From IMG/VR virus record IMGVR_UViG_3300042894_004766, positions 35,792 through 99,791 of that record: a stretch of 64,000 nucleotides of DNA; one strand, 5' to 3'. How positions within the stretch are numbered: the first letter of the stretch is position 1; the number at the start of each line of letters is the position of its first letter. The notes under the pieces were generated by a model. That model ran no database searches, was not told the origin of the DNA, and was given only the letters and a program-made list of their open reading frames with translations. This DNA is from a virus. Positions 3,006 through 59,608 of the stretch are shown in pieces. The translations under genes and the position numbers were made by a program.

Positions 3006-3515
3006 ATGAAATTAAAAGTTTACATTTCCGGATACGGTGCTGAAGTTACTCAAGGAACCTTAACAAATGAAAAAGTTGAGAAAATATACGAGTCACATGA
3101 TTCATTAGAAGAATACTTTAGTCAATATGTTGATGATGATTTTAGTTGGTATGAGATTGATGATAACTTTCATTGCTCTGCTGCTTATTTAGAAGAATCT
3201 TCTATTCAAATTATTGACGAACAAGGTGCAACTATATATGAAAGACCTTGTGATGAATTGATTTATGATGAAGTAATAACAGAACCTATTTATTCTACTG
3301 ATGAGGAATGTGCTATTACCTGTGTATCTACTGAAAAAGGTACTTTTTTTGAAGGAGATTTTGAAATTGAAGAATTTAATCCAGAGTTACTTACTTTGAA
3401 AATTAAAAGATTGGAAAGTTTTAAAATGGTTTCTGAAGTATTCTATAATGGTGTAGAAATACCTGGTGATTTTGTTTTCTCTAATGGGAAAGACTTTAAT
3501 GTTTATATTGACTAA
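3006..3515 (+). CDS. Acidic hypothetical protein
   Basis: ORF preceded by CAAC-N17-TATAAT (2975-3001). Confidence 0.7.
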   Translation: MKLKVYISGYGAEVTQGTLTNEKVEKIYESHDSLEEYFSQYVDDDFSWYEIDDNFHCSAAYLEESSIQIIDEQGATIYERPCDELIYDEVITEPIYSTDEECAITCVSTEKGTFFEGDFEIEEFNPELLTLKIKRLESFKMVSEVFYNGVEIPGDFVFSNGKDFNVYID

Positions 3516-4186
3516 CTCTTCTTTAAAGGTATTGCAGGATTTACATCAAAATTATCATTAAGATAAGTTTTTAACTCATTTTCTATATAATGATCTGGTA
3601 CTAATTTACCATCATCTTCCTTTTCCATTTTATCACTAATAAATGATGTGAAACTATTTACTACTTCAGGTTTAAGTGCTTCAATCAATCTATCCGATAC
3701 TACAAATGCTCTTGAAAATCTATCTTTTAGTGGAACTTCACCTTCTGGTAACATCATATAAGTATCAATAGTTTTCTTTAAGAAATCGGTATATTTAGAT
3801 TGTGGTTCTAAATATTCAAATAATGTATCAAATACTCTGTGTACTAAACGAGAGGAACCAAATATTGTACCTACTACTGCAAGTACTGGAAAGAAAGGTG
3901 CTAATGATAAAGGAATTGCAATTGGTAAGATATTAAATATATTTTTCTTTAGTGTAGTTTTCTTTTTTGCGTCAACCGCGTCTTTAAATATTGCTCTAAG
4001 AATACCAAATGTAAAATTCTCACCTTTAGAATGTAAGTAAGTAGCTAAGTGTCCTTGTTTAGATAAAGAGATTTGTTTTTTCAATTCTTCTTTATCAGTC
4101 ACACCCATTTTAATAAGTTGTTCTTTTATATTTTTATCATATCTTTCTACGATTAGAAAATCACTATATTTCTTTACTTTTTTCAT
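3512..4186 (-). CDS. Hypothetical protein with CTS-like N-terminal tag and central hydrophobic hairpin
   Basis: Starts MKKVKKYSDFLIVE. Hydrophobic segment ILPIAIPLSLAPFFPVLAVVGTIFG. Confidence 0.7.
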   Translation of the reverse strand: MKKVKKYSDFLIVERYDKNIKEQLIKMGVTDKEELKKQISLSKQGHLATYLHSKGENFTFGILRAIFKDAVDAKKKTTLKKNIFNILPIAIPLSLAPFFPVLAVVGTIFGSSRLVHRVFDTLFEYLEPQSKYTDFLKKTIDTYMMLPEGEVPLKDRFSRAFVVSDRLIEALKPEVVNSFTSFISDKMEKEDDGKLVPDHYIENELKTYLNDNFDVNPAIPLKKS

Positions 4187-4250
4187 ATTAAATTATTATT
4201 GTTTTCAATCTATATAAAAACAAAGATTATTTTTTACTATATATAAAATT

Positions 4251-5594
4251 ATGATAACAGAAAAAACAATTTCAGACTTTCTTTCACTTGAGTATAAAGA
4301 GTTCGCGATGTATTCTATTGAAGGTAGGGCAATACCATCAGTTGTTGATGGTTTTAAACCAACACAGAGAAAGATCATTCACATCTCCAATCAAATATGG
4401 AGAACAGGTAATGAGAAGAATCTAAAGGTATTTCAATTGGCTGGTAAAGTAGCATCAGATGCTTTCTATCATCATGGTAATACCTCATTAGAAAATGCTA
4501 TTGTTACAATGGCACAAAAATTTAAAAATAATGCTGCTTTATTAGAAGAAGATGGACAATTTGGTTCATTACGTTCTCCACAACCGGGTGCTGCTAGATA
4601 TATTGGAACAAAATTAAGTGATAACTTTAGATTGATTTATAAAGATTTTGATTTACTTGAATATAAAGAAGAAGAAGGTGAAACAATTGAACCTAGATAC
4701 TTTCTACCAATCATTCCAACTGTATTGCTGAATGGTTCAAGTGGAATTGCAGTTGGATTTGCTTCTAATGTGTTAAATAGAGACATTAAAAGCATTATTG
4801 ATACTTGTGTGAGAGTTATTGAGGGTAAAAAAATAACGAGTATTAAACCGTCTTTAAATGAGTTTACAGGTGAATTCATACAAGATAAGGAAAATCCTAA
4901 GAGATGGATAATAAGAGGTTTATTTCAAAGAGTAAATACATCAACTGTTAGAATAACAGAATTACCACCTTCTATGACTTATGAAAAGTATGAAGAGATA
5001 CTAGATAAACTAGTTGATAATAAAGATATTGTATCATATGATGATAATTGTAAAGATAATATAGATTATACAATTAAATTCCAAAGAGCTGTTCTAGAGG
5101 GTATTGATGATACTGCGATGATAAAGTTGTTAAAATTAGAAGAATCATCAACTGAGATATTTACAACACTTGATGAGTTTGGTAAATTAAAAATATTTGA
5201 AACATCTGAAGAGATTATAGAATACTTTACTAAATTTAGACTAACTTATTATGATATAAGAAAACAACACACTTTGGATAAACTTAATAGAGAATTAAAG
5301 ATATTAAGTAATAGAGGTAGATTTATTAAAGCTATTTTAGATGAGAAACTAAAAATAAATAATGTTTCTAAGGCAGAAATTATATTAAGTATAGAATCAC
5401 TAGGTTTAGAACAAATAGATGACTCTTATGATTACTTATTAAGAATGTCACTTTACTCTTTAACAAAAGAGTTATTTGAAAAAATGAAGCAGGACTTCAC
5501 TGCGAAAAAAGAAGAAATTAAAATATTAGAATCTACTGATCCAAAAGATATGTATCTACTAGATTTAAGTGAATTAAAAAAGAAGTTTAAATAG
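4251..5594 (+). CDS. gp52: Type II DNA topoisomerase, GyrA/ParC-like subunit (T4 gp52-like)
   Basis: RAIPSVVDGFKPTQRKI, YHHGNTSL, GQFGS..AARYI (catalytic Tyr), LLNGSSGIAVGF, ITELP. Confidence 0.95.
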   Translation: MITEKTISDFLSLEYKEFAMYSIEGRAIPSVVDGFKPTQRKIIHISNQIWRTGNEKNLKVFQLAGKVASDAFYHHGNTSLENAIVTMAQKFKNNAALLEEDGQFGSLRSPQPGAARYIGTKLSDNFRLIYKDFDLLEYKEEEGETIEPRYFLPIIPTVLLNGSSGIAVGFASNVLNRDIKSIIDTCVRVIEGKKITSIKPSLNEFTGEFIQDKENPKRWIIRGLFQRVNTSTVRITELPPSMTYEKYEEILDKLVDNKDIVSYDDNCKDNIDYTIKFQRAVLEGIDDTAMIKLLKLEESSTEIFTTLDEFGKLKIFETSEEIIEYFTKFRLTYYDIRKQHTLDKLNRELKILSNRGRFIKAILDEKLKINNVSKAEIILSIESLGLEQIDDSYDYLLRMSLYSLTKELFEKMKQDFTAKKEEIKILESTDPKDMYLLDLSELKKKFK

Positions 5595-5616
5595 TTGAAC
5601 ATTTGATTTTTTTCAC

Positions 5617-5624
5617 TATATTTG
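5617..5624 (+). promoter_or_regulatory. Bacteroidota housekeeping -7 promoter element (TAnnTTTG)
   Basis: TATATTTG with TTG 19 nt upstream, 17 nt before the ATG at 5642. Confidence 0.7.
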
Positions 5625-5641
5625 TAAAAATTATAATAAAG

Positions 5642-6910
5642 ATGAAAGAACAATTAAACCAACTTATAAATGAAAGATCTCCTGGATCTAAACCAATCTT
5701 CTTGGTTATTAGGGGATCACACGCATACGGAACTAATATAGAGACTTCTGATACCGATTATGCGGGTGTATTTATCCAATCATTGGATGATATTCTTGGT
5801 AGTAAATACAAACAGCAAGTAAATGATGATACTAATGATACTGTAATCTATGAGTTACGTAGATTTTTAGAATTATTGGCTAGTAATAACCCAACAGTTT
5901 TAGAATTACTTAATACTCCAGAAGATTGTATTATCTATAAAGATCCTATTTTTGATTTAATATTAGAAAATAGAGAACAATTTATTACTAAAATCTGTGC
6001 TAACTCTTTTGGTGGTTATGCAAGAGCTCAAATTGGTAAAGCAAAGGGTCAAAATAAAAAACAAAACTGGGAAAAAGATAAGGTAACTCGTAAAGATTTA
6101 CTTGACTTTTGTTACGTTATTCAAGGAACAAAAGCTATTCCATGGAAAAAATGGAATGATGGTAGATTTGATGAAAGATTTATTGGTGCAGTAAATGTTC
6201 CATATGCAAAAGATGTTTATACCTTATTCTATGATACTGAATCTGATATGATGTTCTCTGGTAAAGAGAAAAAAGAGTTAAGTGATATGATGATTCAACA
6301 ACGTAAAGACTCTGGTCGAGCATTGGGTCTTGGTTATAAAGGATTGGTTAAAGTTGGTTCGACTACTATTGATAGAAGTAAACTTACTAATATGACTGAT
6401 GAACAAATTGATAGACTTGAGTTAGTTTTTCAAAAAGAAGCAGAAAAGAACTTAGGTGTCTCAAATCAATTGAGGCTATCTTCAATTCCAAAAGGACAAG
6501 AACCATTTTGTACTATTACTTATAACAAAGATGGATATTCAGAACATTGTAAAGACTTTAGAGAGTATGAAGAATGGTTATCAAAAAGAAATCTTCAAAG
6601 ATGGGTAGATGTTAAGTCTCACGGTCAACAAATTGATGGTAAGAATATGATGCACTGTCGTAGATTGATGGATATGGCTCGTGAGATTGCAGAAGGTAAG
6701 GGTATCCTTGTTAAAAGAGATAATGCACAAGAACTTCTTTCAATTAGAAGAGGTGAAATAGATTTACAAACTTTGATTGATCATGTTGAAAGTGAGATTA
6801 AAGAAGTAGATACTTTGTTTAAAGAATCAGATTTACCAGAAAAGGTAGATGAAAATTTTATAAATAGTTTATTAGTAAAAATTAGAAAATCAGTTTATGG
6901 TATACAGTAA
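5642..6910 (+). CDS. Pol-beta superfamily nucleotidyltransferase (YcgL/RlaP-like)
   Basis: GSHAYGTNIETSDTD motif, NNPTVLELL, GKNMMHCRRL, LLSIRRG. Start moved to the ATG at 5642. Confidence 0.85.
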   Translation: MKEQLNQLINERSPGSKPIFLVIRGSHAYGTNIETSDTDYAGVFIQSLDDILGSKYKQQVNDDTNDTVIYELRRFLELLASNNPTVLELLNTPEDCIIYKDPIFDLILENREQFITKICANSFGGYARAQIGKAKGQNKKQNWEKDKVTRKDLLDFCYVIQGTKAIPWKKWNDGRFDERFIGAVNVPYAKDVYTLFYDTESDMMFSGKEKKELSDMMIQQRKDSGRALGLGYKGLVKVGSTTIDRSKLTNMTDEQIDRLELVFQKEAEKNLGVSNQLRLSSIPKGQEPFCTITYNKDGYSEHCKDFREYEEWLSKRNLQRWVDVKSHGQQIDGKNMMHCRRLMDMAREIAEGKGILVKRDNAQELLSIRRGEIDLQTLIDHVESEIKEVDTLFKESDLPEKVDENFINSLLVKIRKSVYGIQ

Positions 6911-7520
6911 CATTGCAATTATTATAGGGTTCTTTTGTTTAGGATATCTATTTAATAATCTTTTAAGAAAGATTGTTGAGGGATATAACGATAGTAAGTA
7001 TCGAAAGGAAATTACGTCTATTTTTCAAAATGTATTAGATAATCTTTATACAAATAAGACAAGTTTTGTTAGTCGAATCAATAACACTGTTACTATTATG
7101 ACAGAGTTGAATGAGGGTATAGTAAATGTTGTTTATCTTATGGATAGACGTGATATTGCTATATTTAAGGGAGATAAGTGTATCTATACATCAGATTCAA
7201 TAGATAAATCATTGGTTGATGAAATCATTGTGGGTTTAGATGTTTTCTATAAACGTGAGATAAATGATGTTGTAAATGTAATGGGAATGGTCTTCTCTCG
7301 TGATGAATTTGAGAACAAATTCAAAATAAAAGTAGAAGATATGAAGAAGGGTATGTTTGGTGGTTTTCCAAAAGAAGAAATGTCAGATATTGAAAAGATA
7401 AAAAGACAGAATGAGGTAAAGTTTAATATAGATGATATATTAGATAGAATTACATCTGTTGGTATTGAAAATCTTACACCAGAGGAAAAAAGATTTTTAG
7501 ATAGTTATAACAATGAATAA
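6897..7520 (+). CDS. Membrane-anchored protein with C-terminal DUF6576-like motif
   Basis: N-terminal TM helix. C-terminal IDDILDRITSVGIENLTPEEKRFL. Confidence 0.7.
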   Translation: MVYSNIAIIIGFFCLGYLFNNLLRKIVEGYNDSKYRKEITSIFQNVLDNLYTNKTSFVSRINNTVTIMTELNEGIVNVVYLMDRRDIAIFKGDKCIYTSDSIDKSLVDEIIVGLDVFYKREINDVVNVMGMVFSRDEFENKFKIKVEDMKKGMFGGFPKEEMSDIEKIKRQNEVKFNIDDILDRITSVGIENLTPEEKRFLDSYNNE

Positions 7521-7889: not shown

Positions 7890-8465
7890 TTAAAGTGGTA
7901 ATTCTTCCTCTTCGTCTTCTTCTTTAGGTTCTTCTTCTTCTTGAGCTTGTCCTTGTGCAGGTGCTTGAGCTTGTCCTTGTGCAGGTGCTTGAGCTTGTCC
8001 TTGTGCAGGTGCTTGAGCTTGTCCTTGTGCAGGTTCTTCAAATTCTCCTTCTGCCGGTGCTTGAGCTTGTGGTTGTGCTTCAGTTTGTACTTGAGCTTGT
8101 GGTTGAGTTTGAGCTTGTGGTTGAGCTTGTGGTTCAGTTTGTACTTGAACTTGTCCTTGACCTTGTGTCTGTGCTTGAGTTTGACCACCCATTATAGCAC
8201 CACCAGGAATCTTATCTATATCTAAGAAAGTAGTTGTTACATATTTAATAATTTCTTCTGCAATATCTACATCACCAAAAAATTGACGTAAGTTTTTACC
8301 TGTTGTATCTTTTACTTTTTTAACATAAGCGTTGATTAAAGATTGAGGTAAGTCAATCATAGTTTTTACTTTATAAAGATCGTTAACTTGGAAAACAGAT
8401 TCTTTTATAATCTCTTCTCTATTTTTTTGAATACGAAATTTTTCAAATGCTTTAACGTGTTTCAT
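7890..8465 (-). CDS. CTS-tagged protein with Q/A/P-rich low-complexity acidic tail (possible head core/internal protein)
   Basis: Starts [18 protein letters not shown] repeats. Late promoter at 8491-8500. Confidence 0.75.
7940..8034. repeat. Coding tandem repeat, 4 x 24 bp
   Basis: CTTGAGCTTGTCCTTGTGCAGGTG x4 with no spacers, encoding (A)PAQGQAQ. Confidence 0.95.
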
Positions 8466-10590: not shown

Positions 10591-11688
10591 TTATTTTAAA
10601 CCATGTATTTTAGGAATTGAAAGTGAAGGTTCTAAATCAATTTCTAAATCAAATTTTAAATAATCTTCTCCTTTTCTAATAGTTATATAACATTTCTCAT
10701 CACCATGATATACACCACCATCTACTTCAAATCCTGGAAATAAATCTTCAAGCTCATCTTTGATGTCTCTAAGTATTTTTTCTGGGTAAATTTCACCCCA
10801 CTTCACCGCATTTTCAAAATTTTCTTCACTATCATAACCAAACATTTGATAATGACTACCATCTATACAATCATGTGGGAACAAATCATTTAATTGTTTT
10901 TTCTTTTCTTCTAAATCGGGTAACTCATAATCCGCATCTATATTAAGTGCTTCATTTGTAAATGATTCAAACTTTTTTAAATATTTCATAGTTTTAAAGC
11001 TCTCTACTACTTGTCCTACTGATTTTTCGATAACTTCCTTACTTGTTGTTGTAAAGTAGTAACCAAGTTTTTGAAAATCATTTCTGTTTGCAACAGAAGC
11101 ACCATTTTGTCCTGGAAACGCTGTAATTACAGAAAGAACTGTTTTATCACCTACTTTGCCAAGCTTGGCACCAATAAAACTAAGAAAAGTAGTTTTCTCA
11201 CCTTCACCTTCTTTTACTTTTATACTAAACTCATTTCCTCTAGAATCCTTATATTTATATAAATTCATAGATTTAAACTCATCACTATTTGGATCTGATT
11301 TATGTAAATTTTCTATACCTACTGGTATTTTAGAGTCTAATCCAAGCCATTTAAACTTTTCTGCTTCATCCGGGTTTGTTACTTTTGTCTCATTTGGTCC
11401 AAATCCTTTAGTCATATCAGTTGGTTTATTATTAGATACTAAGGAAACTATTGCTTTTTTCAAGTCAACTCCTTTTTCAAATTTAGATCCAGGTATTGTT
11501 TCGTCAACATGTGACTCAGTTATATGTGTAAGATCATCTAGAAGTAGAATAAAATCTCCGGCCTCAAAAACACTTTCTTTAGTGGCAGTTACCTTACCTT
11601 TAAGAAATTGATTTGCATCAACCATTTGTTGTATTTCTGAATAGATATTATCTTCAAGTGATTCATTAAATTTTTGTAAATGTTTCAT
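10591..11688 (-). CDS. CTS-tagged hypothetical protein carrying a second, internal tag
   Basis: Starts MKHLQKFNES. Internal MKYLKKFESFTNE begins at the ATG at 10989. Confidence 0.75.
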   Translation of the reverse strand: MKHLQKFNESLEDNIYSEIQQMVDANQFLKGKVTATKESVFEAGDFILLLDDLTHITESHVDETIPGSKFEKGVDLKKAIVSLVSNNKPTDMTKGFGPNETKVTNPDEAEKFKWLGLDSKIPVGIENLHKSDPNSDEFKSMNLYKYKDSRGNEFSIKVKEGEGEKTTFLSFIGAKLGKVGDKTVLSVITAFPGQNGASVANRNDFQKLGYYFTTTSKEVIEKSVGQVVESFKTMKYLKKFESFTNEALNIDADYELPDLEEKKKQLNDLFPHDCIDGSHYQMFGYDSEENFENAVKWGEIYPEKILRDIKDELEDLFPGFEVDGGVYHGDEKCYITIRKGEDYLKFDLEIDLEPSLSIPKIHGLK

Positions 11689-11735: not shown

Positions 11736-13883
11736 TTATTTACCATTACTATTAAACCAATTTATACCAGTTGTATTAGAATCGGTAACTGTTTTATTTC
11801 TATTTAAAATCTTTCTTCTAACATTCAGTAATTGTGTATAATCAACAGTTTCTGTAAATTCAAGATTTCTTAGGCAATCTTCAACATAAATCTTAAATAT
11901 GGGATCCTTTTGTAAAGTATCTTCAACCATCTCTTTAAAATCATTTTTTACAAAAGCAGATGTTGCATTTACAATAGTCATCACACAGTCATCATGTCCA
12001 ACATCTGCTGCATATCTTGTATTACCTGCAGTTGTTGTATGTTTAACAAATGTTGTAATCTCTCTAACAGTTTCCTCATTATTTATAGAAAATCCTTTAG
12101 AAATCATTAAATCTTGATAATCTTTAACCATCATATTCTTATTCTCACCTACTTTTAATCCAACTTTTTCTTCGGTTGCATCTGCTCTATGTTTGTATCT
12201 AAGGAAAATAGATGATCCATAATGATTATTACCATCAAATACGTGAGGTAACTCAGCAAGTAAAGTATTTCCGTAGTTATTTAACTCTAAAACTATCTTA
12301 ACATTATCTGGGTTTAAATATTCAAATGCTAAAATATAAAGTAATTCTGCCAATTGTTTAACTGAAACTAAATTACTTCTATATAAACCAATCTGTTCTA
12401 ATCTAAAGAAATCGGTAACCGATTTATAAGCTAATCTTTGTGATTCAATCGTATCCATATCTTTTTTAGATATTTTAAATATGTTTATGATTGAGTAATC
12501 CTGTCCTAAACCTTCTGCAATATCGACTGATAATATAATTTTCTCATTTTTTCTATTTATAGGCATGAATATTTCATCATCATCAATCCATTTCAAATCT
12601 CGATAACTAAATCGTAACTTATTTTCAAATTCAAATATCTCTTCAAATTTATAATTTTTCTTATTATTTAAAAGACTATCAATTATTGCCTCATTTAATA
12701 ATGACTTACTTGAGTTGATAAATCTTAGACCATATTCTTGATTGAAAGCATCCTCACCACCAATATCTTTTACTGCTTCTTCTTTCCAAGTTGTCATCTC
12801 ACCAATTGCTCTTAAAGGAACTTCAAATCCTTTTGAATCAATAAATGTTAAGTTTTTAACATCCTCATCTGTACATCTCTCATTATTAAATACAGAGATG
12901 ATGTCTTTTTGAAAATCTGAGTTGAATCCCATATGAGTTTTTGTTATATCCTCAGGATATGTTTCTCTAATACCACTAAATATTTGTTCTTTTGTTACAC
13001 CATGTTCATATAATCTATGATCATTTAATCTCAAATAAGTAACAAATCTTCCTGGTACTTGATGCCAGTAAACACGCATCGGTTTGTAGTTATTTTTAAG
13101 TGGATCACCTTCAGGTCTTTCTGCATCTGTTAACAACTTATGGAATAAGTTCATACCATTTGGTGTCGATGTAATAATAATCTTTGAATTTTGTACTGCT
13201 GATACGGTTGGATAAGCAGCGGTATAGTATGGTTCGATAATATTTGAAGGAATATGTGCGAACTCATCAAGATAAAGTACGTCAATGGTAAAACCGATTG
13301 CCGGTGTTTTAGATCTCGCAGATGTTTTTATTCTACATCCGTTTTCAAATGTTAGTGACTTTTGATTCCAAGTTTTAATACCCGGTTTTAAAAAGAATGG
13401 TAATAACGAGTAGATAGATTTAATCTTATCTACAATCTCAACTGCGGTATCTCCTTTATTGGCAACAATCATTATATTTTTATCATTACTAAATAGAATT
13501 GTATGCAACATGAAAATTGATGCTGAGATTGTTTTACCAACCTGACGAGAAGCCATTAAAATATTGAATCTACTATTTACAAAATTATCTAATATTTCTT
13601 TTTGATACTCTCTTAATTTAATTTGACCTACTGATCCATCTTCTGTCTTTACTCTACAATATTGTTCTGTAAAGTAATGCACATCTAACGCACATTTGAT
13701 GTATTCTTCTTGTTCTTCAGGTGACATTCTAAAAGATACACCTGCTCTTCTTAATCCTACTTCAGATTTTAACCAAGGATTTTGGTATCTTTTGATGACG
13801 ATACCGTCATTTATTTTATCTGTTGATTCATCTACCAGCTTCGTGGTAAAGATCATTTGTTTCTCTATTATTTCTTTTGCCAT
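11736..13883 (-). CDS. terL: Terminase large subunit (T4 gp17-like)
   Basis: LREYQ, ASRQVGKT (Walker A), LYLDEFAHI (Walker B), ITSTPNG, SVDIAEGLGQDYS, HDDCVM. Confidence 0.96.
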   Translation of the reverse strand: MAKEIIEKQMIFTTKLVDESTDKINDGIVIKRYQNPWLKSEVGLRRAGVSFRMSPEEQEEYIKCALDVHYFTEQYCRVKTEDGSVGQIKLREYQKEILDNFVNSRFNILMASRQVGKTISASIFMLHTILFSNDKNIMIVANKGDTAVEIVDKIKSIYSLLPFFLKPGIKTWNQKSLTFENGCRIKTSARSKTPAIGFTIDVLYLDEFAHIPSNIIEPYYTAAYPTVSAVQNSKIIITSTPNGMNLFHKLLTDAERPEGDPLKNNYKPMRVYWHQVPGRFVTYLRLNDHRLYEHGVTKEQIFSGIRETYPEDITKTHMGFNSDFQKDIISVFNNERCTDEDVKNLTFIDSKGFEVPLRAIGEMTTWKEEAVKDIGGEDAFNQEYGLRFINSSKSLLNEAIIDSLLNNKKNYKFEEIFEFENKLRFSYRDLKWIDDDEIFMPINRKNEKIILSVDIAEGLGQDYSIINIFKISKKDMDTIESQRLAYKSVTDFFRLEQIGLYRSNLVSVKQLAELLYILAFEYLNPDNVKIVLELNNYGNTLLAELPHVFDGNNHYGSSIFLRYKHRADATEEKVGLKVGENKNMMVKDYQDLMISKGFSINNEETVREITTFVKHTTTAGNTRYAADVGHDDCVMTIVNATSAFVKNDFKEMVEDTLQKDPIFKIYVEDCLRNLEFTETVDYTQLLNVRRKILNRNKTVTDSNTTGINWFNSNGK

Positions 13884-14589: not shown

Positions 14590-15375
14590 TTAAAGCTTAG
14601 TAAGCCATATCACTGGGTCTATACCACTTAATACATAAAAACTCATTCTTCTATTACCACCAACAATATACCATTTTCCTTCAATTTCAATTGCCGATGT
14701 TATTGGCATTTTACCACCTTTCCTTATTTGTTCTTCAAAGAATAAATAAGATTTACCATAGTAGTCAAAGTAATGAACCGCGTCATTGTAGTCTTTTTTA
14801 TTGATGTCAGGGTACTTACTAAATAAGCCAGTAGTATTAAATTTATCTTCTGCACCTTTTTCTTTCAAGAAAGTCATAGTGTTATCATAAGCTTTTGATA
14901 ATCTTTGATACTCACTGGCATCTTTTATGAAATTTGAAAATTCACCTCTACCTATTGATTGTGAATCATCCGCTAACTTTTGAATTGTTGTTTTATCTAA
15001 TTGAACTTTCTGACCTTTCCAAAATACCTTCTTACAAAATTTAATAAAATCGTAATAAGGTTTTGCATCTACCTTTTTGTCACTAACTGTCAACTCTTTC
15101 ATTGATAGAATTTCGTCTGCAGTTGGTCCAATCTTTGAAGTATCTGTGTGTTTGCCATTTATATCATCTACTTGTGTTTCAAACTCTTTAGGTTCATCAA
15201 GATTGAAGATAGATTTATCTATAGTAAATTTCTCACCATCGACAATCAATTCACTTGGTAGTTGTTTTAACTCTTTAAAGATTCTAAACATTTCTTTGAT
15301 CTCAAGTTCGGCTTCTCCCCAATTTACTTTAGTTTCTTTACTAACAAACTCTTCGTATAATTTTAAATACTTCAT
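14590..15375 (-). CDS. CTS-tagged protein with C-terminal ParB/Srx-like domain
   Basis: Starts MKYLKLYEEF. C-terminal PITSAIEIEGKWYIVGGNRRM resembles the ParB GxxR motif. Confidence 0.65.
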   Translation of the reverse strand: MKYLKLYEEFVSKETKVNWGEAELEIKEMFRIFKELKQLPSELIVDGEKFTIDKSIFNLDEPKEFETQVDDINGKHTDTSKIGPTADEILSMKELTVSDKKVDAKPYYDFIKFCKKVFWKGQKVQLDKTTIQKLADDSQSIGRGEFSNFIKDASEYQRLSKAYDNTMTFLKEKGAEDKFNTTGLFSKYPDINKKDYNDAVHYFDYYGKSYLFFEEQIRKGGKMPITSAIEIEGKWYIVGGNRRMSFYVLSGIDPVIWLTKL

Positions 15376-45025: not shown

Positions 45026-45039
45026 GTGGGTTTTTTTTT
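45010..45039 (+). terminator. Intrinsic terminator
   Basis: AAAAAACCTAC-ATAA-GTGGGTTTTTTT. Confidence 0.7.
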
Positions 45040-45050
45040 ATAATATAGAA

Positions 45051-45260
45051 ATGAAAGAGATAAATTTAAAAATAAAAACAGTTAATGTTGAGACAAAATC
45101 TAGAAAACTTAGATGTGATTGGTCTACAGAGTTAGTAAAAGATGTTAATTCTTTTCATAATATTGATGCGGAGGCAGAATTAGAAAGGTTAGTGGTTGGT
45201 GAGATTAGAAAACAAAATAGAAAGAAAAAAATTGAAAATTTAACCAAACATACTGTTTAA
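45051..45260 (+). CDS. 69-aa stand-alone fragment of the major capsid protein (gp23-like)
   Basis: VETKSRKLRCDWSTELVKDVNSFHNIDAEAELERLVVGEI aligns to gp23 AKSRxLKAxYSxELAQDLxAxHGxDAxAELxxILxxEI. Confidence 0.8.
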   Translation: MKEINLKIKTVNVETKSRKLRCDWSTELVKDVNSFHNIDAEAELERLVVGEIRKQNRKKKIENLTKHTV

Positions 45261-45276
45261 TTTTGATATAAAAACT

Positions 45277-49564: not shown

Positions 49565-49591
49565 AAAAAGAGGATATTATCCTCTTTTTTT
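49563..49591. terminator. Bidirectional intrinsic terminator
   Basis: AAAAAAGAGGATA-T-TATCCTCTTTTTT. Confidence 0.8.
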
Positions 49592-50576
49592 ATGTTCTTG
49601 ATTGATACCACATTGATTTTGGCTCTTCCTTAGGTTGTTCCAATTGTTTTGGCTCTTCTTCTTTAATTTCTTCTTTTTTAGGTAATTCTCTTGGTATATC
49701 TGCAATACTATAACGAAACCATTTATTTGGGTTTTTATAATCTGCTGAACCTCTAAGTGTTTTCGTATCATCATACAACTGATTTACTTTTATACCATAT
49801 TTTAAAGCATGAATACATTTTTGGAAGTTTCTAGAATCTCCTAATAATGAAAATACCTTCCAAATTTCCCCTTCTATCTGATCATCTATAAGACTTGGTA
49901 GTAATTTCTTAAACTTAAATGCACTATTTCTATCTGAGAATATGCCATAATAATAAACATCACGATATCCCTGACCAGCTGGCATATATACCTGTTTTGG
50001 ATTGGCTTGAGGAAGTCTTAAACTAATGTTTAATTCACTACAATCATCATAAAGTTCTTGTAATGTGTATTGTTTTGGTGGATCTTCTTCATCCCAATCA
50101 TCTGGACTATTCCAACTTTCTAATCCATCATCCCAATTAGATAAATTTACTTTAAAAGAAAATAACGGAACATCCCATCCTGGCAATATACTACCAATTC
50201 TTGTTTTTGTTTCTTCTAATGGATCAAAATAAAATTGTATTGTAAAGTATAACTCTCTTTGTGCATCACTCCAAAGATCAAGCATTTCTTCTTCTGATAT
50301 ATCTTCATATCTTGTATTAATATCACTTACTACATTTGAACCCGGTGTTTTCGCATTTAGAATAAACTTTGCCTTAGGATTTGTAAATTTAACTTCATGA
50401 GTTAAATCACTATAACTTTTAACAAGTTCAATATTATAAACACCCCATTCTTTTTCTGATCCGTAATCTTTTAACTTTTTACCTTTATCTACTTTGTGAG
50501 GCATATACATAAATCTTTGTCCAGCATCTCTATAGATTTTAGGTGTTAGTTCTTCATAAGTTTTAATCCATTTCAT
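49590..50576 (-). CDS. CTS-tagged hypothetical protein
   Basis: Starts MKWIKTYEEL. Late motif at 50581-50590. Confidence 0.75.
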   Translation of the reverse strand: MKWIKTYEELTPKIYRDAGQRFMYMPHKVDKGKKLKDYGSEKEWGVYNIELVKSYSDLTHEVKFTNPKAKFILNAKTPGSNVVSDINTRYEDISEEEMLDLWSDAQRELYFTIQFYFDPLEETKTRIGSILPGWDVPLFSFKVNLSNWDDGLESWNSPDDWDEEDPPKQYTLQELYDDCSELNISLRLPQANPKQVYMPAGQGYRDVYYYGIFSDRNSAFKFKKLLPSLIDDQIEGEIWKVFSLLGDSRNFQKCIHALKYGIKVNQLYDDTKTLRGSADYKNPNKWFRYSIADIPRELPKKEEIKEEEPKQLEQPKEEPKSMWYQSRT

Positions 50577-53083: not shown

Positions 53084-54787
53084 ATGAAATGGATTAAAAA
53101 CAGAAATCTTTTTTTAGAAGCTAAATTACGTGATGTTATTCTACCAAGACAAGCAAAAGCAGTAATATCAAAATGGGGAGAGAAATACTTAGATTATGAA
53201 GAGGTAACACCTACTGATAAGATTATACAAGGAAGTTGGAAGTTATCTGAAGAAGATAAGAATGATGTATTAGGTGTATTTTGTCAAACAGATATGCCAC
53301 AGCTTTTTACTTTGTTTTCAAGTTTACCAGAACAATTTGGTAATGTTTTAAATCAATCTATCAATACTGATCTATTTAGAGAAGATAAAGCTACATATGA
53401 AAGAATTTTTGAGGGATTTGATATTAGAAAACCTAAATTAGATCAAATACTTGCTATATTCAGTTCAGTTTTTAGAAAACTATCAATTCCTGATACAATG
53501 GCAACTTCTGTAATCTCTAAAGATGAATCAAATAGACCAATCAGAGATGAACAAGGTAATATGATTAGAGTTGAAAAGAAACCCGGTGATTTAGCTTTTA
53601 GTAATAACTTAATCAATATAAACTCTTTCATTGTAGATTACAATGATTTAGTTGATAAATGTATTGACGCAAATGTTGAAGGATGGTCTACTATGGATAA
53701 AATAGCATCATCAAATTTATTTTCCGAAAACAGAAACCTAGGTAGTTTTATAAACTTTGCAGCAACAAATGAGAATACACAATATAAATTAGACTTTGAA
53801 ATTTTTAATAAAGATATTTTCTTAAAAATTAGTCATAATCCAAAAGACATTTTAAATATGTCTATTTCTAAATTCTATTCTTCATGTCAACACTTATATA
53901 GTGGTGGATATAGTCGTCAGGTTTTGGCAAATGTATTTGATCCAAATAGTATACCGGCATTTTTAATTTTTGAAACTCCTATTTTCTGGGAAGGTGAAAA
54001 AATATCAGAACATTTACCATTATCTAGAATGATTATTAGAAATCTAGAATCATTTGAAGAAAATGCTCCTACAAAATTATATTTTGATAGAGCTTATCCA
54101 GATAGAATGCAAGATAAATTTGAAGAAATAGTTACTAAATATAGTAAAAATGTAAGTACTGGTCAAAGAGGTGATAGATATTTATATACTCCAGATATTG
54201 ATTTTGAAGATGCATTAGACTCACCATATCAAGATAAATTATCACTTACTCAAGGTAAGATGATTGGTAAAAACATTAAGACATTATATTTAAGTCAAAT
54301 TGGTAATTGGAAAAATGTTAGAGTTGATCCAAATGCAAGAATTAAAGAATTGATTATTGAAACTACTGAAATACCAGATAGTTTACTAACTTTAAATATC
54401 ACATTAGATTGGATTAAGTTTAAATTCATTGAAATACATACTTTAAAAGACTTTGATAATATCAAAACAACAAATATAGCATTTGATAAATGTAAATTTT
54501 CTAATGATGTTTTACAAGATATTAATAAGTCAAATCCAAATATTAAAAAACTACAAATAATTAGTTGTGATAATGTTGGATCTTTTGACTTCTCTACATT
54601 CAAGTCATTAGAAGAGTTACAAGTATTATATACTTTAGATTCTGCAGAAGATTTGAAATCAATTGTATCAGATAGTCTAAAGAAATTGATAATTTCTGGA
54701 GATTTAGTAACTAAAGAAAGTAAATCAATAATATCATCTCTTAGAAGTAAAGGATTAAAAATAGAAATAGTTGGACCAGTAATATGA
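53084..54787 (+). CDS. CTS-tagged protein with C-terminal leucine-rich repeats
   Basis: Starts MKWIKNRNLFLE. LRR-like NIKTLYL, IKELII, NIKKLQI, SLEELQV, SLKKLII. Late promoter at 53046-53055. Confidence 0.75.
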   Translation: MKWIKNRNLFLEAKLRDVILPRQAKAVISKWGEKYLDYEEVTPTDKIIQGSWKLSEEDKNDVLGVFCQTDMPQLFTLFSSLPEQFGNVLNQSINTDLFREDKATYERIFEGFDIRKPKLDQILAIFSSVFRKLSIPDTMATSVISKDESNRPIRDEQGNMIRVEKKPGDLAFSNNLININSFIVDYNDLVDKCIDANVEGWSTMDKIASSNLFSENRNLGSFINFAATNENTQYKLDFEIFNKDIFLKISHNPKDILNMSISKFYSSCQHLYSGGYSRQVLANVFDPNSIPAFLIFETPIFWEGEKISEHLPLSRMIIRNLESFEENAPTKLYFDRAYPDRMQDKFEEIVTKYSKNVSTGQRGDRYLYTPDIDFEDALDSPYQDKLSLTQGKMIGKNIKTLYLSQIGNWKNVRVDPNARIKELIIETTEIPDSLLTLNITLDWIKFKFIEIHTLKDFDNIKTTNIAFDKCKFSNDVLQDINKSNPNIKKLQIISCDNVGSFDFSTFKSLEELQVLYTLDSAEDLKSIVSDSLKKLIISGDLVTKESKSIISSLRSKGLKIEIVGPVI

Positions 54788-56556
54788 AAAATCTAAAATA
54801 TATAAAATTATTTGAAGCATTTGATGCTACAACACTTAACGCAACACTTAAACATATTAATGGAAAAGATGATAAAAATAACTTTTTATCAAATCTAAAA
54901 ACAGTATGTCAAAAATTTGACATACCTGAGTCTAAACTTACAGATGACTTATTTACTTATTTGCCTTTTAATAAAGCATTGAGATTCAACAATGTTGTTT
55001 CTGATGACCAACCTTGTGGTGCAGTAGGTGAGTTTATTCATGGTGAAAGATGTGATAACGGTAAAGTAAGAAGACCTTGGGGTAGAGGATTTAGAGTTGT
55101 TGATTGTGGTACTTGTAAAGGTACTGGTATCAAGCCTAAAAGATCAGATTTATCTTTACTTAAATTTTGGTTTAATGCTGAAGGTAAGTATATTGCTACA
55201 ACTGCAGTAGATGGTATTTATAGAGCATCAACTAATACCGCAGCAACAACATTCTCACCAAATCTTGTAGATTATGATGTAGTTAAAAGAATTCCAAAGT
55301 CGCGTATAAATGAACTTGAAACAGGTGATATTATTGCGTTAGACTTAGTTAATAATGGTGGTTGGAGAAATGAGTTATATCCACAAGTTGTTAGTTATGT
55401 TATGAAAGCTCAAACTTGGTCAGGAACAAAGGTTTTTGCATTACAAAATACTGCGAGTTATTATAATAACTATCCTAGAGAAACTACTGGTTGGAATCAA
55501 ATAGCAGGTAGATATTGGCAAATGAGTCAATCCAGAGTTAATAATATAAATTTATTAAAAGCTAAAGCTAATGCAGGTGGTCAAGATCCTTATGGATATA
55601 ATACATTATTTGATATGTCTAACTTCCGTATTAGACCTGTTCAAGTTGCTTCTACATTGAAAGATGCAAACTTTGCAATTATATTAGACTTCTCTAAATT
55701 AGAGAAGTTGGGAGTTGTAAAGAAAACAGAATTAAAATCTGGTAGAACAGAATTAAGAGCAGGTGCAACTGCTCTTATATCTAATGATGATATAAAGAAA
55801 GCAAATATTAAAAGATACTTTGATAAAATTGCCACTAATTTTAAACTAACTGGAGAATTACAAGATGTTAGTAAATTTACTAGTATGGCTATTAGAGCTC
55901 TTGGTGCTAGATCTTGTGTGTACTTCTTAAATAATTCTGCAAGTACTAATGAAATGGATACTCTGTCAACTATAGCAGGTTATATCTTTAAGATGATTAA
56001 AAAAATAAAAACTGCAGAAAAAATAGATAATCAATCTGCAGAAGATGGATTAGTAGGAACAGCAGTTGAAGATTTAAAACTGGATAGAGACTTTATAGAT
56101 ATTATTACTATTATTAACGATAAATATAAAAGCTTATTGGATAATTCAATTAAAAAAGTAGATAGTACAAACAGATTACTTAAACAACTTAAAGATAGAA
56201 TTAAAGCAGAGACTAATGAAGATTGGACGGATAAAGATCTTAGAATACTATCTAATATAGATAACTTATCTATAGAGATAAATAAATATATTTCATCAAT
56301 CAAAGTAGATACTTTAGAGGATGTTGAATTTCTAATACAAGAGATTTATTCTATAAAAAGTTTATTAAGATCTGATAGAATGTCTATAACTAACTTAAAT
56401 GGTTTATTTGATAGAATGCGTCCAGGTAGTTATTATAATGATGTTCGTCATTTATATCCAGCACTTATAGATAGAAGACAATATTATGGTAATATAAATA
56501 ATGGTATTCAATCTATAATTACAATTATTAGAAAAAAACTAGCAATGTTAGACTAA
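54784..56556 (+). CDS. CTS-tagged protein with DnaJ-like Zn finger
   Basis: MKNLKYIKLFEAF. C..CDNGKV..CGTCKGTG. Confidence 0.75.
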   Translation: MKNLKYIKLFEAFDATTLNATLKHINGKDDKNNFLSNLKTVCQKFDIPESKLTDDLFTYLPFNKALRFNNVVSDDQPCGAVGEFIHGERCDNGKVRRPWGRGFRVVDCGTCKGTGIKPKRSDLSLLKFWFNAEGKYIATTAVDGIYRASTNTAATTFSPNLVDYDVVKRIPKSRINELETGDIIALDLVNNGGWRNELYPQVVSYVMKAQTWSGTKVFALQNTASYYNNYPRETTGWNQIAGRYWQMSQSRVNNINLLKAKANAGGQDPYGYNTLFDMSNFRIRPVQVASTLKDANFAIILDFSKLEKLGVVKKTELKSGRTELRAGATALISNDDIKKANIKRYFDKIATNFKLTGELQDVSKFTSMAIRALGARSCVYFLNNSASTNEMDTLSTIAGYIFKMIKKIKTAEKIDNQSAEDGLVGTAVEDLKLDRDFIDIITIINDKYKSLLDNSIKKVDSTNRLLKQLKDRIKAETNEDWTDKDLRILSNIDNLSIEINKYISSIKVDTLEDVEFLIQEIYSIKSLLRSDRMSITNLNGLFDRMRPGSYYNDVRHLYPALIDRRQYYGNINNGIQSIITIIRKKLAMLD

Positions 56557-57174
56557 ATGAAACACTTGAGAATATTTGATAATTTTCAAGATAAACAAAC
56601 ATTGATAATTGTTGATGTTCAAAAGTCTTTTAGAAAGTTTTTTACTGAAATGTATTTACATGAATTAAAAAACTATTGTAAGAAGTTTGAATCAGTCTAT
56701 CAAATTTGGGATAACCACGTCGATGGTAAGAATGTAGATAAAGATTATCTATATGATGAGAATCCAGATATTCCAGTTCATAACGATTTATATCGTTTTC
56801 CTAATCAAAAAGATTTAATAGAGAAAAGATATAACTATGATGTAGATGTGGATTTTTATAAAAAGATTTTAAGTAAAGATGTTTATAAAGATTTAAAAGA
56901 AAAAGAGTCTAATAAAGAATTAAAAAGAGGTGATACATTCAATACTAAAGAAGGTACATTTATAATTTATATTGGAAATAATCATAAGTGGTATCATTTA
57001 CCGAAAAAACTACAAGAACTATTCACTGAACTAAAAGGACAAGAAGTTGTTATGGTTGGTGGTTCTGATTCAGAGTGTTATTTAGATGTTGAAACTGCGG
57101 CTAAATCATTTGGTGTTAAAATAAAGAGGGATTTTAAATATATCTACTCTGCAAATCATTGTCCAATAAAATAA
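56557..57174 (+). CDS. CTS-tagged isochorismatase/nicotinamidase-fold hydrolase
   Basis: MKHLRIFDNF. LIIVDVQ..F, DNH, EK, VGGSDSEC. Confidence 0.75.
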   Translation: MKHLRIFDNFQDKQTLIIVDVQKSFRKFFTEMYLHELKNYCKKFESVYQIWDNHVDGKNVDKDYLYDENPDIPVHNDLYRFPNQKDLIEKRYNYDVDVDFYKKILSKDVYKDLKEKESNKELKRGDTFNTKEGTFIIYIGNNHKWYHLPKKLQELFTELKGQEVVMVGGSDSECYLDVETAAKSFGVKIKRDFKYIYSANHCPIK

Positions 57175-57183
57175 ATAAAAGAT

Positions 57184-57630
57184 ATGAGATACTTAAAAAC
57201 TTTTGAAAATTTTGATTTTGATAGAATTGATTCTGATGAATCAGACTATTTATATGTAGAAACTTCACAGATACCTAATTCTGGAAGAGGTTTATTCACC
57301 GCAATTGATATTGAAAAAGACGAGGTTATTTCTATTTTTAAAGGAGAAATACTTTCGGATGAAGAAATTAAATCAAGAACTGAATCAGGAGATGATGATT
57401 ATTTCATGAACCTACCAAATGGTGATATATTAGATTGTAAACAAACTGATTGTTTTGCAAAATATGCAAATGATGCAGAGGGTTCTAATACTGGCTTTAA
57501 AAATAATTGTATCATTTCAATGGATGGTGATGATGTTGTTCTTGTTGCAACAAGAGATATAGAATCTGGTGAGGAAATATTTGTTGAATATGGTGAAAAC
57601 TATTGGAACAATAATTCTTATAGACTTTAA
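57184..57630 (+). CDS. CTS-tagged SET-domain protein lysine methyltransferase
   Basis: MRYLKTFENF. SQIPNSGRGLF, FAKYAND, ATRDIESGEEIFVEYG..YW. Confidence 0.9.
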   Translation: MRYLKTFENFDFDRIDSDESDYLYVETSQIPNSGRGLFTAIDIEKDEVISIFKGEILSDEEIKSRTESGDDDYFMNLPNGDILDCKQTDCFAKYANDAEGSNTGFKNNCIISMDGDDVVLVATRDIESGEEIFVEYGENYWNNNSYRL

Positions 57631-58007
57631 CTTACTGTCGCATAAACTTGATAATCAGAAACCGTAAAATTTATAACCATATATTCTTGGTATCTTTCAG
57701 GATCTTCAAAAAATTCTACGAATAGTTCATAAGGAACAGAATCTACTTCTGGTATATAATCAGCAATTTGTGCCATTATTTCTCCTTCAATTGATTCCGC
57801 AGATAATCTAGTTTCGTGTAGTAGTTCTGTTAGATTAGCACCAAAGTTAGGCTCACCTAAAACTTCACCTTTATTAGTAAAGATAATCATTTCATACTTT
57901 TGTATGATAACTCTGATTACGTCATCTTCGATAAGTTCTGCCAATTTAAACATTGGATGTCCTGGATAACAGATATAGAAATCTATAAAATTAAAATTAT
58001 TTGCCAT
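57627..58007 (-). CDS. gp25: Baseplate wedge subunit (gp25-like)
   Basis: IFTNKGEVLGEPNFGANL..LL.E, QIADYIP. Confidence 0.85.
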   Translation of the reverse strand: MANNFNFIDFYICYPGHPMFKLAELIEDDVIRVIIQKYEMIIFTNKGEVLGEPNFGANLTELLHETRLSAESIEGEIMAQIADYIPEVDSVPYELFVEFFEDPERYQEYMVINFTVSDYQVYATVS

Positions 58008-58035
58008 GAACTATATATAAAAAAAAATAACCCAG

Positions 58036-59007
58036 TTAGACTGGGTTTTTTAATATATCTCTAAATTTTCCTATAATTGTAATTCCTAATATAAGAGGAT
58101 CTGTTGCAGTTTCCAACTTAGAAGTATAATCTGCAATTACATAAGCAGTTTCAAATAATTTATTGACACTTTCTTTTTTATCTGTAATACACCAATCAAT
58201 AAAAGGTTTTCCTAATAATTTAATCATCACATCAATTTTCTCAGCCCCAAAGTTTGACATTAGAAAATGATATGTTTTCTCAAAGTCTAAATCTTCATAT
58301 AAAGTATTATAAAGTTCTAACTTCACTTTTGCAGAAACATTACCTGTTCCATCACTTATAGAACCTGTTTCTAAATAACTTTGAACTTCAACTAATACTG
58401 AACGAAAATCTGGAAACTTTTTAGTAATAATGTTGACTAAATCTTCTTTTGGTATCTCTGATTCTTCTTTAGGAAGAATTTCATTGGTAATCTTTTTATA
58501 AATTTCTTGTTTAAGATATTTTTCTTCTTCTACTCCTTGACAATCAAATCCAATTTGTTTAATTCTTGATTTTAGTCCATCAGATATTTTGTTTATATGG
58601 TTCGTTGTAATGATAAAACGAACATTTCTGTTGTATCTTTCTATAAAAGCTTTAAAAGCATCTTGGAAGTTCGCAGAAACTCTTTCAAACTCATCTAGGA
58701 ATACATATTTAATATCTGAATTAGTATCCATCATAGGAGTAAATTTACAGAAGTTATCAATTTCAGTTCTAAGAACATCAATTGATGTATCCATTGAACA
58801 GTTTAATTCTAAGTAAGGAGTTTCTTTTGAGTATCTACCGATTAGTATTCTAGCTAAACTAGTTTTACCGGTTCCGTAGTGACCGTGAAAGATATAGTGT
58901 TGGTTTACACCACTTTCTAATTCTTTTCTAATTCTTGGAAGTAATATGATGTCTTCGATAGTTTTCGGACGCCACTTTTCCCATAATAATAATTTATTTA
59001 CTGACAT
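58036..59007 (-). CDS. gp44: Sliding-clamp loader large subunit (gp44/RFC-like)
   Basis: WEKWRPKTIEDIIL, GHYGTGKT, FLDEFE, SRI, FPDFR. Confidence 0.93.
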   Translation of the reverse strand: MSVNKLLLWEKWRPKTIEDIILLPRIRKELESGVNQHYIFHGHYGTGKTSLARILIGRYSKETPYLELNCSMDTSIDVLRTEIDNFCKFTPMMDTNSDIKYVFLDEFERVSANFQDAFKAFIERYNRNVRFIITTNHINKISDGLKSRIKQIGFDCQGVEEEKYLKQEIYKKITNEILPKEESEIPKEDLVNIITKKFPDFRSVLVEVQSYLETGSISDGTGNVSAKVKLELYNTLYEDLDFEKTYHFLMSNFGAEKIDVMIKLLGKPFIDWCITDKKESVNKLFETAYVIADYTSKLETATDPLILGITIIGKFRDILKNPV

Positions 59008-59053
59008 ATTTATCTCATTTTCTCATGAGTATATCTAAAATTATTAAAAAAGT

Positions 59054-59608
59054 TTATACTTTTGGACGACCAATTAAGTATTCTTCTTCTGTTACAGTAT
59101 GGTCTGGAAGAGTTCTTGTATAAACACCGTCACCAATCCAATTTATTTTAGATTGTGGAAAAACTTTACTTACTGTTTGTTTATCACAATATCTACAATC
59201 TGCCGCTATAAGTATTTCTGCGGGTCTTCCAGACACTTCTATCCAGAAGCCTTCTCTGTGTAGTAGAATAATCAATTGTTTCATTAATTCTTTTCTAGCT
59301 TCTTTTGTACCATCGTGACCCCAACCAGATATTTTATGTCCGTGAGATTCTCTTGAGAATATTACAACATCTGCATGTGGATCTTTATCTATATCAACTG
59401 CAGTCCAGAAAGTTAGATCAGGATCATTAACAACTGCTTCTGGTGAAGATACTCTAACGTGACCACCAAGTGGTTTATAAGCTAGATCAATAATTTCCCA
59501 TATTTCTTTTTTAAGTTTAGACCTATCTTCCATAGAAAGTTCAACCCATTTATTTTTATCAAATAAATCGGAGAATGTAAAGTCTTCAAATAATTTAATG
59601 TAATTCAT
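59054..59608 (-). CDS. CTS-tagged hypothetical protein (possible GNAT-like fold)
   Basis: Starts MNYIKLFEDF. Late promoter at 59614-59623. Confidence 0.7.
   Translation of the reverse strand: MNYIKLFEDFTFSDLFDKNKWVELSMEDRSKLKKEIWEIIDLAYKPLGGHVRVSSPEAVVNDPDLTFWTAVDIDKDPHADVVIFSRESHGHKISGWGHDGTKEARKELMKQLIILLHREGFWIEVSGRPAEILIAADCRYCDKQTVSKVFPQSKINWIGDGVYTRTLPDHTVTEEEYLIGRPKV

Follow-up and report, generated by a model that had tools for sequence, protein, structure and literature searches.

A short N-terminal leader shared by many otherwise unrelated proteins was identified in a 64,000-nt stretch of viral DNA, hereafter the window, which corresponds to bases 35,792–99,791 of the IMG/VR contig IMGVR_UViG_3300042894_004766 (99,791 bp, 28% G+C, CheckV completeness 17%). 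Our analysis of the window, of the whole contig and of its relatives confirmed that this leader is a portable protein tag, more widespread than first reported in the initial annotation of this DNA, and we give about an even chance to the reading that it works like the capsid targeting sequence (CTS) of bacteriophage T4, in which case tagged proteins would be loaded into the head and their leaders removed by proteolysis. The contig is a fragment of a huge uncultured Flavobacterium-type phage, and its nearest public relatives are LR745206 (634,780 bp) and LR756502 (642,428 bp), with ~79% DNA identity in the sheath gene and 73–76% protein identity in the large terminase. Both relatives are 'Mahaphage' genomes with predicted Bacteroidetes hosts (Al-Shayeb et al. 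2020; PMC7162821), and LR745206, taken whole, served as a second, complete data set.

All 16 leaders that the initial annotation had listed are present at the N-termini of the respective open reading frames (ORFs). Using the strict pattern M[KR]x[ILV][KR]x[FY][EDN]x[FL], the tag was found at residue 1 of 7 of the 127 contig ORFs, compared to a mean of 0.006 in shuffled N-termini, 2 of 29,056 internal positions and none of 373 out-of-frame ORF starts, so that the enrichment over shuffled N-termini, on which the original proposal depended, is borne out. For the census itself, a position-weight matrix was used with internal Met positions as the null, and two forms of the leader were distinguished, type-1 and a type-2 form reading M-[IL]-K-K-aromatic-x-x-F-[IL]-x-E. 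This census identified 20 type-1 and 3 type-2 tags on the contig (23 of 127 ORFs), some of them upstream of the window, 15 type-1 tags and a single type-2 tag among the 72 ORFs of the window, and 117 type-1 and 18 type-2 tags in LR745206 (135 of 923 ORFs). In the two genomes together, 137 type-1 tags were thus counted among 1,050 ORFs, where ~7 were expected, or 158 tags when the 21 type-2 proteins are included. Moreover, the six best internal matches, out of 194,963 windows scored, are each directly preceded by Met, which ties the motif to the initiator Met and points to mis-called starts and, in one case, to a second in-frame module. According to both the census and these internal matches, the tag occupies the extreme N-terminal ~10 residues including the initiator Met, as in T4-type CTSs.

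To compare the bodies of the tagged proteins, the first 16 residues were removed and the remainders were clustered by BLAST. Under these conditions, 99 tagged proteins fell into 91 components, 75 of which are singletons, indicating that the cargo is indeed unrelated at the BLAST level, and most of the related pairs are orthologues between the two phages in which the tag pattern is kept. A paralogous family sharing its first helix was rejected at the same level (91 of 99), and structure models likewise place the tag outside the fold.

The portability of the tag is best illustrated by two adjacent genes of the window. The SET-domain protein (57184–57630; window coordinates are used unless another sequence is named) is ~60% identical to chromosomal Flavobacterium SET proteins, which points to a Flavobacterium-like host and to a fairly recent gene capture. 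The Flavobacterium homologues begin with a short 'MSK' start and carry no tag, and it is this place that the tag occupies in the phage protein; all 10 aligned phage versions (59–88% identity, one from the 642-kb genome) are tagged. The second example, a conserved 205-aa protein (56557–57174), has 1,236 homologues, and the 118 full-length sequences among the 120 homologues listed (67–99% identity) keep M-[RK]-[YH]-[IL]-K-x-[FY]-E-[NSD]-[FYH], followed by a variable polar linker and then by the conserved fold. In its AlphaFold model (mean predicted local distance difference test score, pLDDT, 84.9), residues 1–11 are below 50 and unstructured, and in the weaker model of the SET protein the same holds for the pLDDT of residues 1–19; both models therefore predict that the tag lies outside the cargo fold. 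A Foldseek search with the 205-aa fold returned weak matches to nicotinamidases (E ~0.07) and isochorismatases. Taken together, BLAST clustering, the grafted SET enzyme and the structure models agree with the earlier claim that the leader is a portable N-terminal tag on unrelated proteins, and extend it to a host-derived enzyme. A tag-like leader was also seen on a ClpB/ClpC-like double AAA+ ATPase that lacks its customary N-domain and is encoded upstream of the window (contig 4983–7043); its LR745206 orthologue starts differently, indicating that tag presence can vary between orthologues.

The sequence information in tagged genes climbs sharply at the ATG and fades past approximately codon 11, and no nucleotide conservation was detected 5' of the tagged ATGs beyond a general A-rich leader. 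Within the tag, synonymous codons are used as in the gene bodies for seven of nine residues (Lys, p = 0.26; Leu, p = 0.19; Glu, p = 0.87; as well as Asn, Ile, Arg and His), Phe and Tyr codons deviate mildly (p ~0.005–0.008), and Leu at tag position 4 is written with five different codons. An IMG/VR search with the back-translated pattern returned at least 117 loci, and among the loci listed 245 of 1,416 ORFs are tagged; they include contigs of 39% and 45% G+C, in which the tag is present and written in other codons. A nucleotide-level signal was rejected on the basis of the unconserved upstream regions, the ordinary synonymous usage and the occurrence of the tag in these contigs, and these results show that the tag acts at the protein level and is selected as an amino acid sequence.

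Pfam assignments further set the tagged proteins apart, since 150 of them yielded 23 families, from ~11 proteins, compared to 103 families for 150 length-matched untagged proteins, among them topoisomerase, ClpP, DNA methylases, DHFR, RNase H, tRNA synthetase and portal families. This contrast indicates that the tag marks a distinct protein class rather than a general feature of expression. Among the tagged proteins with a Pfam domain are a ClpB-like ATPase, two NUDIX proteins, a nucleotide cyclase, a Peptidase_M15_4 protein, the SET protein, a methyltransferase and a Zn protease, and the tag was found on no replication, tRNA or recognised structural protein. Cargo lengths range from 63 to 1,284 aa. 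Tagged genes are spread across the whole 634-kb LR745206 genome and are frequently neighbours, in runs that recall the T-even internal-protein loci (52 adjacent tagged pairs versus 19.6 expected). In LR756502, long tandem arrays of ~450–550-bp genes, each with a tag start, were seen at 10–32 kb and 418–426 kb, with nine tagged genes in succession at 11.1–15.6 kb, an arrangement akin to greatly expanded T-even internal-protein loci.

T4-type head assembly in this phage lineage is supported by sequence matches in the relatives. In LR745206, the genes for a Portal_T4 portal protein (E = 3.8e-58), a 707-aa protein (198546–200669) and a Gp23-type capsid protein (E = 6.8e-26) stand in T4 order. A weak Peptidase_S77 match covers the first ~160 residues of the 707-aa protein (E = 1.1e-4), its 20.1 bits falling short of the 27 bits that Pfam requires. 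This putative protease domain is followed by ~11–12 tandem repeats of 14 residues that read I-x-Y-S-E-Y-[IL]-A-E-N-L-D-K-N and by a very acidic stretch, as in a protease–scaffold fusion. The same fusion with its repeats was found in four other huge phages and is kept across genomes of 462–735 kb, with ~10–12 repeats when all five are taken together, and head machinery was seen altogether in LR745206, LR756502, LR756504, LR756501 and LR756500. Each scaffold repeat contains one [IL]-A-E, the classical gp21 site of T4, and the Y-S-E-Y-I-A-E of the repeat is very close to Y-Q-E-F-I-A-E, the core of the T4 tag. In T4 itself, F-G-S-F-L-T-E, which the repeat unit also matches, stands at the Glu-65 maturation site of gp23, and gp22 is rich in [LI]-x-E. 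The resemblance of the scaffold's approximately dozen tandem units to the T4 tag core suggests that the tag imitates the scaffold or a substrate of the protease.

The 10-aa sequence on which the initial annotation had based its comparison, MKTYQEFIAE of T4 IPIII, was found in the T4 genome at two adjacent gene starts, which we take to be ipII and ipIII. The literature agrees in this respect, the same sequence being quoted for the CTS of T4 IPII and IPIII from Mullaney and Black (1996) in PMC5694885 and PMC3012670. With a pattern fixed beforehand from T4, 8 N-termini were matched, and all 3,965 internal Met positions were negative. The 21 type-2 tags show the exact T4 core spacing, aromatic-x-x-aromatic-[IL]-x-Glu, type-2 tags are also found in the 735-kb phage, and hybrid tags that join a type-1 start to an [FW]-[IL]-x-E ending occur in other IMG/VR contigs. 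A hydrophobic-x-Glu element is present within residue 16 of 85% of the type-1 and 100% of the type-2 proteins, as against 34% of untagged proteins, and the residue after this element of the tags is mostly Ser, Ala or Asn.

The timing of expression was approached through promoter motifs. The 8-mers AATATATA and TATATATA are 55–65x enriched within 90 nt 5' of genes, and ATATATA lies upstream of the sheath, portal, protease–scaffold, capsid and terminase genes of LR745206 and, in the window, upstream of those for the terminase, the sheath, the tube and the gp25-like and gp15-like proteins. Given a gp55-like late sigma factor in the window (62013–62387, plus strand; phrog_234 'late sigma transcription factor', E = 1.1e-7), the likeliest reading of ATATATA/TATATATA is as an equivalent of the T4 late promoter TATAAATA. 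In LR745206, ATATATA precedes 51% of the tagged compared to 25% of the untagged genes (p = 1.6e-6), and on this contig the corresponding values are 71% and 41%. All 16 tagged genes of the window stand directly behind ATATATA or in an ATATATA-headed operon, where the initial annotation had spoken of most of them, and none stands behind the host-type TAnnTTTG motif, which is rarer before tagged genes, a difference that is not significant. With the promoter as a proxy, the cargo would be co-expressed late with the head proteins. The related statement that replication, tail and host-promoter genes lack the tag stands, with its tail part limited to recognisable tail proteins, as two tagged ORFs lie in the sheath operon.

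The sigma factor region itself (62013–62511) consists of two overlapping ORFs of 124 and 50 aa, of which the longer gives the phrog_234 match and the 50-aa ORF gives no match. As the same split is kept in LR745206 (189151–189649; 121 and 53 aa), it reflects either a two-piece protein or a programmed frameshift. In addition, ATATATA is found 4–7 nt before the ATG of 27 tagged and 98 untagged genes (~125 in the two genomes; 17683, 50576, 59608, 58007 and 59657 are examples in the window), signal-peptide genes among them. The mRNAs of these genes would be leaderless or nearly so if transcription starts are spaced as in T4 late promoters. A requirement of the tag for such leaderless-type genes was rejected, given the 98 untagged genes with the same spacing and the position of about half of the tagged genes inside operons.

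By analogy with T4, we infer a pathway of docking to the scaffold, encapsidation, cleavage and injection. Tagged proteins would be made late, and the short amphipathic N-terminal peptide would dock onto the prohead core, built in the relatives from the protease–scaffold fusion. The docked proteins would be enclosed as the capsid shell forms, many of them would lose the tag by cleavage after Glu at residues 8–13, and they would be delivered into the next host along with the DNA. More tentatively, a Mahaphage subclade with Flavobacterium-like hosts may use a capsid-targeting tag that has expanded and diversified to pre-load ~100 proteins per head and inject, together with the DNA, a ready-made effector proteome. 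Host-derived enzymes in this set would include the SET methyltransferase, NUDIX hydrolases, a nucleotide cyclase, an M15 peptidase and the isochorismatase-like hydrolase.

Several observations weigh against head loading and have to be set beside the likeness to T4. Type-1 tags are largely out of the T4 register, as the full aromatic-x-x-aromatic-[ILV]-x-[ED] core is present in 2 of 137, and Phe or Tyr frequently stands three positions ahead of the Glu, in the place of Leu or Ile. The type-1 weight matrix does not score the scaffold repeats, the best scaffold window having rank 369. A likeness of type-1 tags to the repeats was accordingly rejected, and no claim is made for 'KYLDYLAE', an out-of-register element ahead of the repeats. 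The type-1 pattern gave 73, 90, 33, 15 and 3 matches across the five huge relatives (controls, 0–3), all of which have the repeats; since the 735-kb phage has repeats and is without type-1 tags, the two do not covary, and a candidate covariation over these five phages was dropped. In the cultured distant relatives PTm1, MaF61, MA9V-1 and PAU, 0–1 pattern matches were found. The cargo is acidic (median isoelectric point, pI, 4.9; 77% below pI 6), whereas T4 internal proteins are basic, and it does not share the small, basic, DNA-associated nature of T4 IPI–III. Furthermore, ~15% of the proteome represents very many species for one capsid, the two tagged ORFs in the sheath operon suggest that the destination could include other parts of the virion, and the head module lies beyond the contig end and is known from relatives only. 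It is the weak register match, the lack of scoring on the repeats, the acidic cargo and the sheath operon, among others, that keep our confidence at about even and other explanations under consideration.

One such explanation is that the leader docks proteins onto another partner, which could be another part of the virion (neck, tail or baseplate), an assembly inside the cell, or a chaperone or hub of the phage. Portability, N-terminal specificity and a position outside the fold suit any docking tag, and the two tagged ORFs in the sheath operon, the missing covariation of type-1 tags with the scaffold repeats and a cargo that is acidic, unlike T4 internal proteins, are all in keeping with it; however, through its type-2 and hybrid forms the tag family is connected with the T4 core and with an ending that resembles a protease site, and no recognised tail or baseplate protein is tagged, so that we regard a different docking partner as possible but rather unlikely. 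A translation or nascent-chain signal, for example a favourable opening for leaderless-type late mRNAs whose promoter lies 4–5 nt before the ATG, would account for the 27 tagged genes with closely spaced ATATATA, and it is general knowledge that AAA as second codon and A/U-rich openings favour initiation. We consider it improbable nevertheless, since synonymous codons are unconstrained, the tag is kept in other codons at 39–45% G+C, half of the tagged genes are operon-internal, 98 untagged genes share the 4–7-nt spacing, conservation extends to the aromatic residues 7 and 10, and the tag is limited to one protein class.

The arrangement of tagged genes in arrays, and the LR756502 runs of ~500-bp genes that each start with the tag, would also fit a relic of gene birth, in which recombination or duplication reuses a 5' module that itself does little. 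Such an origin is hard to reconcile with unconserved upstream sequence and ordinary synonymous variation inside the tag, with pattern-level purifying selection over the 118 homologues (among 120 listed) of the 205-aa protein, and with retention of the tag on the host-derived SET enzyme across versions 59–88% identical; we judge it improbable as well. A degradation or turnover signal for a host or phage AAA+ protease, modelled on the N-terminal recognition motifs of ClpX, appears quite improbable. The Met-basic-hydrophobic-hydrophobic opening is loosely similar to ClpX N-motif 2, and the phages encode ClpP and Clp-like ATPases, but position 5 of the tag is basic instead of hydrophobic, there is no obvious reason for ~15% unstable late proteins, and the Glu-Ser/Ala ending and the T4-like type-2 form would be left unexplained. 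Finally, a single short leader in front of many unrelated bodies corresponds formally to systems for ribosomally synthesised and post-translationally modified peptides (RiPPs), in which the leader would serve a modifying enzyme. We hold a RiPP-like leader to be highly improbable: no untagged gene family is consistently found beside tagged genes, the largest untagged LR745206 paralogue families not being clearly enriched within three genes of a tag (baseline, 47%), which counts against a dedicated neighbour enzyme, and the tagged genes are dispersed over the whole genome.

The T4 CTS, to which the head-loading reading refers, brings internal proteins that are otherwise unrelated, as well as foreign ones, into the scaffolding core, and gp21 then removes it (PMC5694885, PMC3012670). 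Like this CTS, the tag comprises ~10 residues at the extreme N-terminus with a Met-Lys start, aromatics three positions apart and, in most cases, a hydrophobic-x-Glu element followed mostly by a small residue, and in its type-2 form it has the exact core spacing. It is likewise carried by unrelated, fast-evolving, non-essential-looking proteins, often arrayed and with a promoter setting that points to late expression, in a lineage whose members include relatives with a T4-type portal, a putative protease, a scaffold-like core and a Gp23-type capsid protein. New compared to the T4 CTS are the scale (~15–22% of ORFs, >130 proteins in the complete relative, as against three to a few in T4), the divergent and longer type-1 form, which has three extra N-terminal residues and mostly lacks T4's [IL]-x-E, an acidic, enzymatic cargo that includes large proteins and a gene of host origin, and an occurrence across some of the Mahaphage clade and in numerous IMG/VR contigs.

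Encapsulin cargo-loading peptides are also short and portable and are enough to send unrelated enzymes into an HK97-fold shell. They are, however, usually C-terminal, bind the shell protein directly and remain uncleaved, with no scaffold or protease involved, whereas the tag is N-terminal. In giant phages of the SPN3US type (phiKZ-like), many proteins are loaded into the head, and N-terminal propeptides of head and ejection proteins are cut after Glu by a gp21-related prohead protease, with (A/S/G)-x-E as the SPN3US cleavage motif and ~8 of ~50 head proteins processed (PMC5694885, PMC7411985). The present case resembles SPN3US as a giant phage with candidate loading of many proteins into the head, but the SPN3US propeptides measure 20 to >100 residues and have no single shared short motif. 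In the open literature, we found no publication linking megaphages to capsid targeting or to an N-terminal motif.

Should the head-loading reading be correct, the tag would mark, from genome data, the injected protein arsenal of the largest known phages, comprising >100 mostly unknown proteins per genome as candidates for immediate host take-over and anti-defence. This would help to explain the purpose of part of a 600-kb genome and would supply a short, naturally occurring tag with which foreign proteins could be placed in capsids of very large size. The tag family also makes testable an old question, that of how T4-type tags are recognised.

The tagged genes of the window begin with a 224-aa ORF (3512–4186, minus strand, ATG at 4186; type-1, matrix score 12.3; ATATATA 51 nt upstream), whose LR745206 orthologue keeps the tag at an internal Met, in line with a mis-called start, and a 191-aa ORF (7890–8465, minus, ATG at 8465; type-1, score 16.6; ATATATA 25 nt upstream), whose orthologue there is still tagged. 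The following 365-aa ORF (10591–11688, minus, ATG at 11688; type-1, score 20.6; ATATATA 23 nt upstream) contains a second complete in-frame tag after an internal Met at residue 234 (position 10989). Apart from the tags its two halves are unrelated, and the second tag would mean either that two tagged modules have been joined with no stop between them or that translation can start internally. A 261-aa ORF (14590–15375, minus, ATG at 15375, frame open from 15381; type-1, score 25.1) is the second gene of a unit headed by 15378–16226, in which ATATATA lies 5 nt before the ATG of the heading gene, and a 165-aa ORF (17186–17683, minus, ATG at 17683; type-1, score 18.2) has leaderless-type spacing, with the ATATATA end 5 nt before its ATG.

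The two tagged ORFs of the sheath operon are on the plus strand. A 908-aa ORF with a weak type-1 tag (18380–21106; score 14.5; ATATATA 20 nt upstream), for which no match was found in Pfam, PHROG or Atlas, is the first gene, followed by a 193-aa ORF with a type-1 tag and then F-L-E-E (21106–21687; score 17.3), and both form one predicted late operon with the tail sheath gene (21748–25836). The orthologue of the 193-aa ORF adjoins the LR745206 sheath gene and is tagged. Further downstream, a 192-aa ORF (30837–31415, minus; type-1, score 21.7; ATATATA 18 nt upstream) precedes, as first gene, a 130-aa ORF with a type-1 tag of the Y-K-I-F-E-S form (30429–30821, minus; score 20.1), and a 328-aa ORF (49590–50576, minus; type-1, score 17.4) has the ATATATA end 4 nt before its ATG.

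A four-gene tagged operon on the plus strand is headed by a 567-aa ORF with a weak type-1 tag ending F-L-E-A (53084–54787; score 13.6; ATATATA 28 nt upstream), whose orthologue is tagged. It is followed by a 590-aa ORF in which the tag is shifted three residues from the start (54784–56556; score 12.5), a layout that its LR745206 orthologue shares, by the type-1 205-aa protein with its weak isochorismatase/nicotinamidase-like fold (56557–57174) and by the 148-aa SET-domain methyltransferase with its grafted type-1 tag (57184–57630; Pfam SET, E = 8.5e-14, domain from residue 34). The last tagged gene of the window encodes a 184-aa ORF (59054–59608, minus; type-1, score 15.9; ATATATA end 5 nt before the ATG), and its orthologue is found in a different place in LR745206 and is tagged.

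Other recognisable genes of the window encode a T4-type large terminase (11736–13883), a tail tube protein (27195–27818), a metallophosphoesterase (28808–29926; Pfam Metallophos only, read as Mre11/gp47-like) and gp25-like, gp44-like and gp15-like proteins (57627–60529; the gp25 and gp15 matches are below Pfam thresholds). By synteny with LR745206, the contig stops just short of the head module.

The only type-2 tag of the window (aromatic-x-x-F-I-x-E, T4-like) is carried by a 93-aa ORF (43367–43648, plus), the second gene behind 42913–43377 (ATATATA 18 nt upstream), and the same tag form is found on its orthologue at LR745206 220566. A role of this ORF as first exon of a capsid gene was considered and dropped, as in the relative the true capsid gene is found at another locus and has no tag. 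The single head-gene trace on the contig follows shortly after, a 69-aa Gp23-like fragment (45051–45260) that matches only the most conserved Gp23 segment (Pfam positions 131–185), flanked by domain-less neighbours of 443 and 410 aa (43694–46509). This trio is kept in LR745206 (220883–223637), away from the true capsid gene of that phage, with the upstream ORF and the mini-ORF in frame and one TAA between them.

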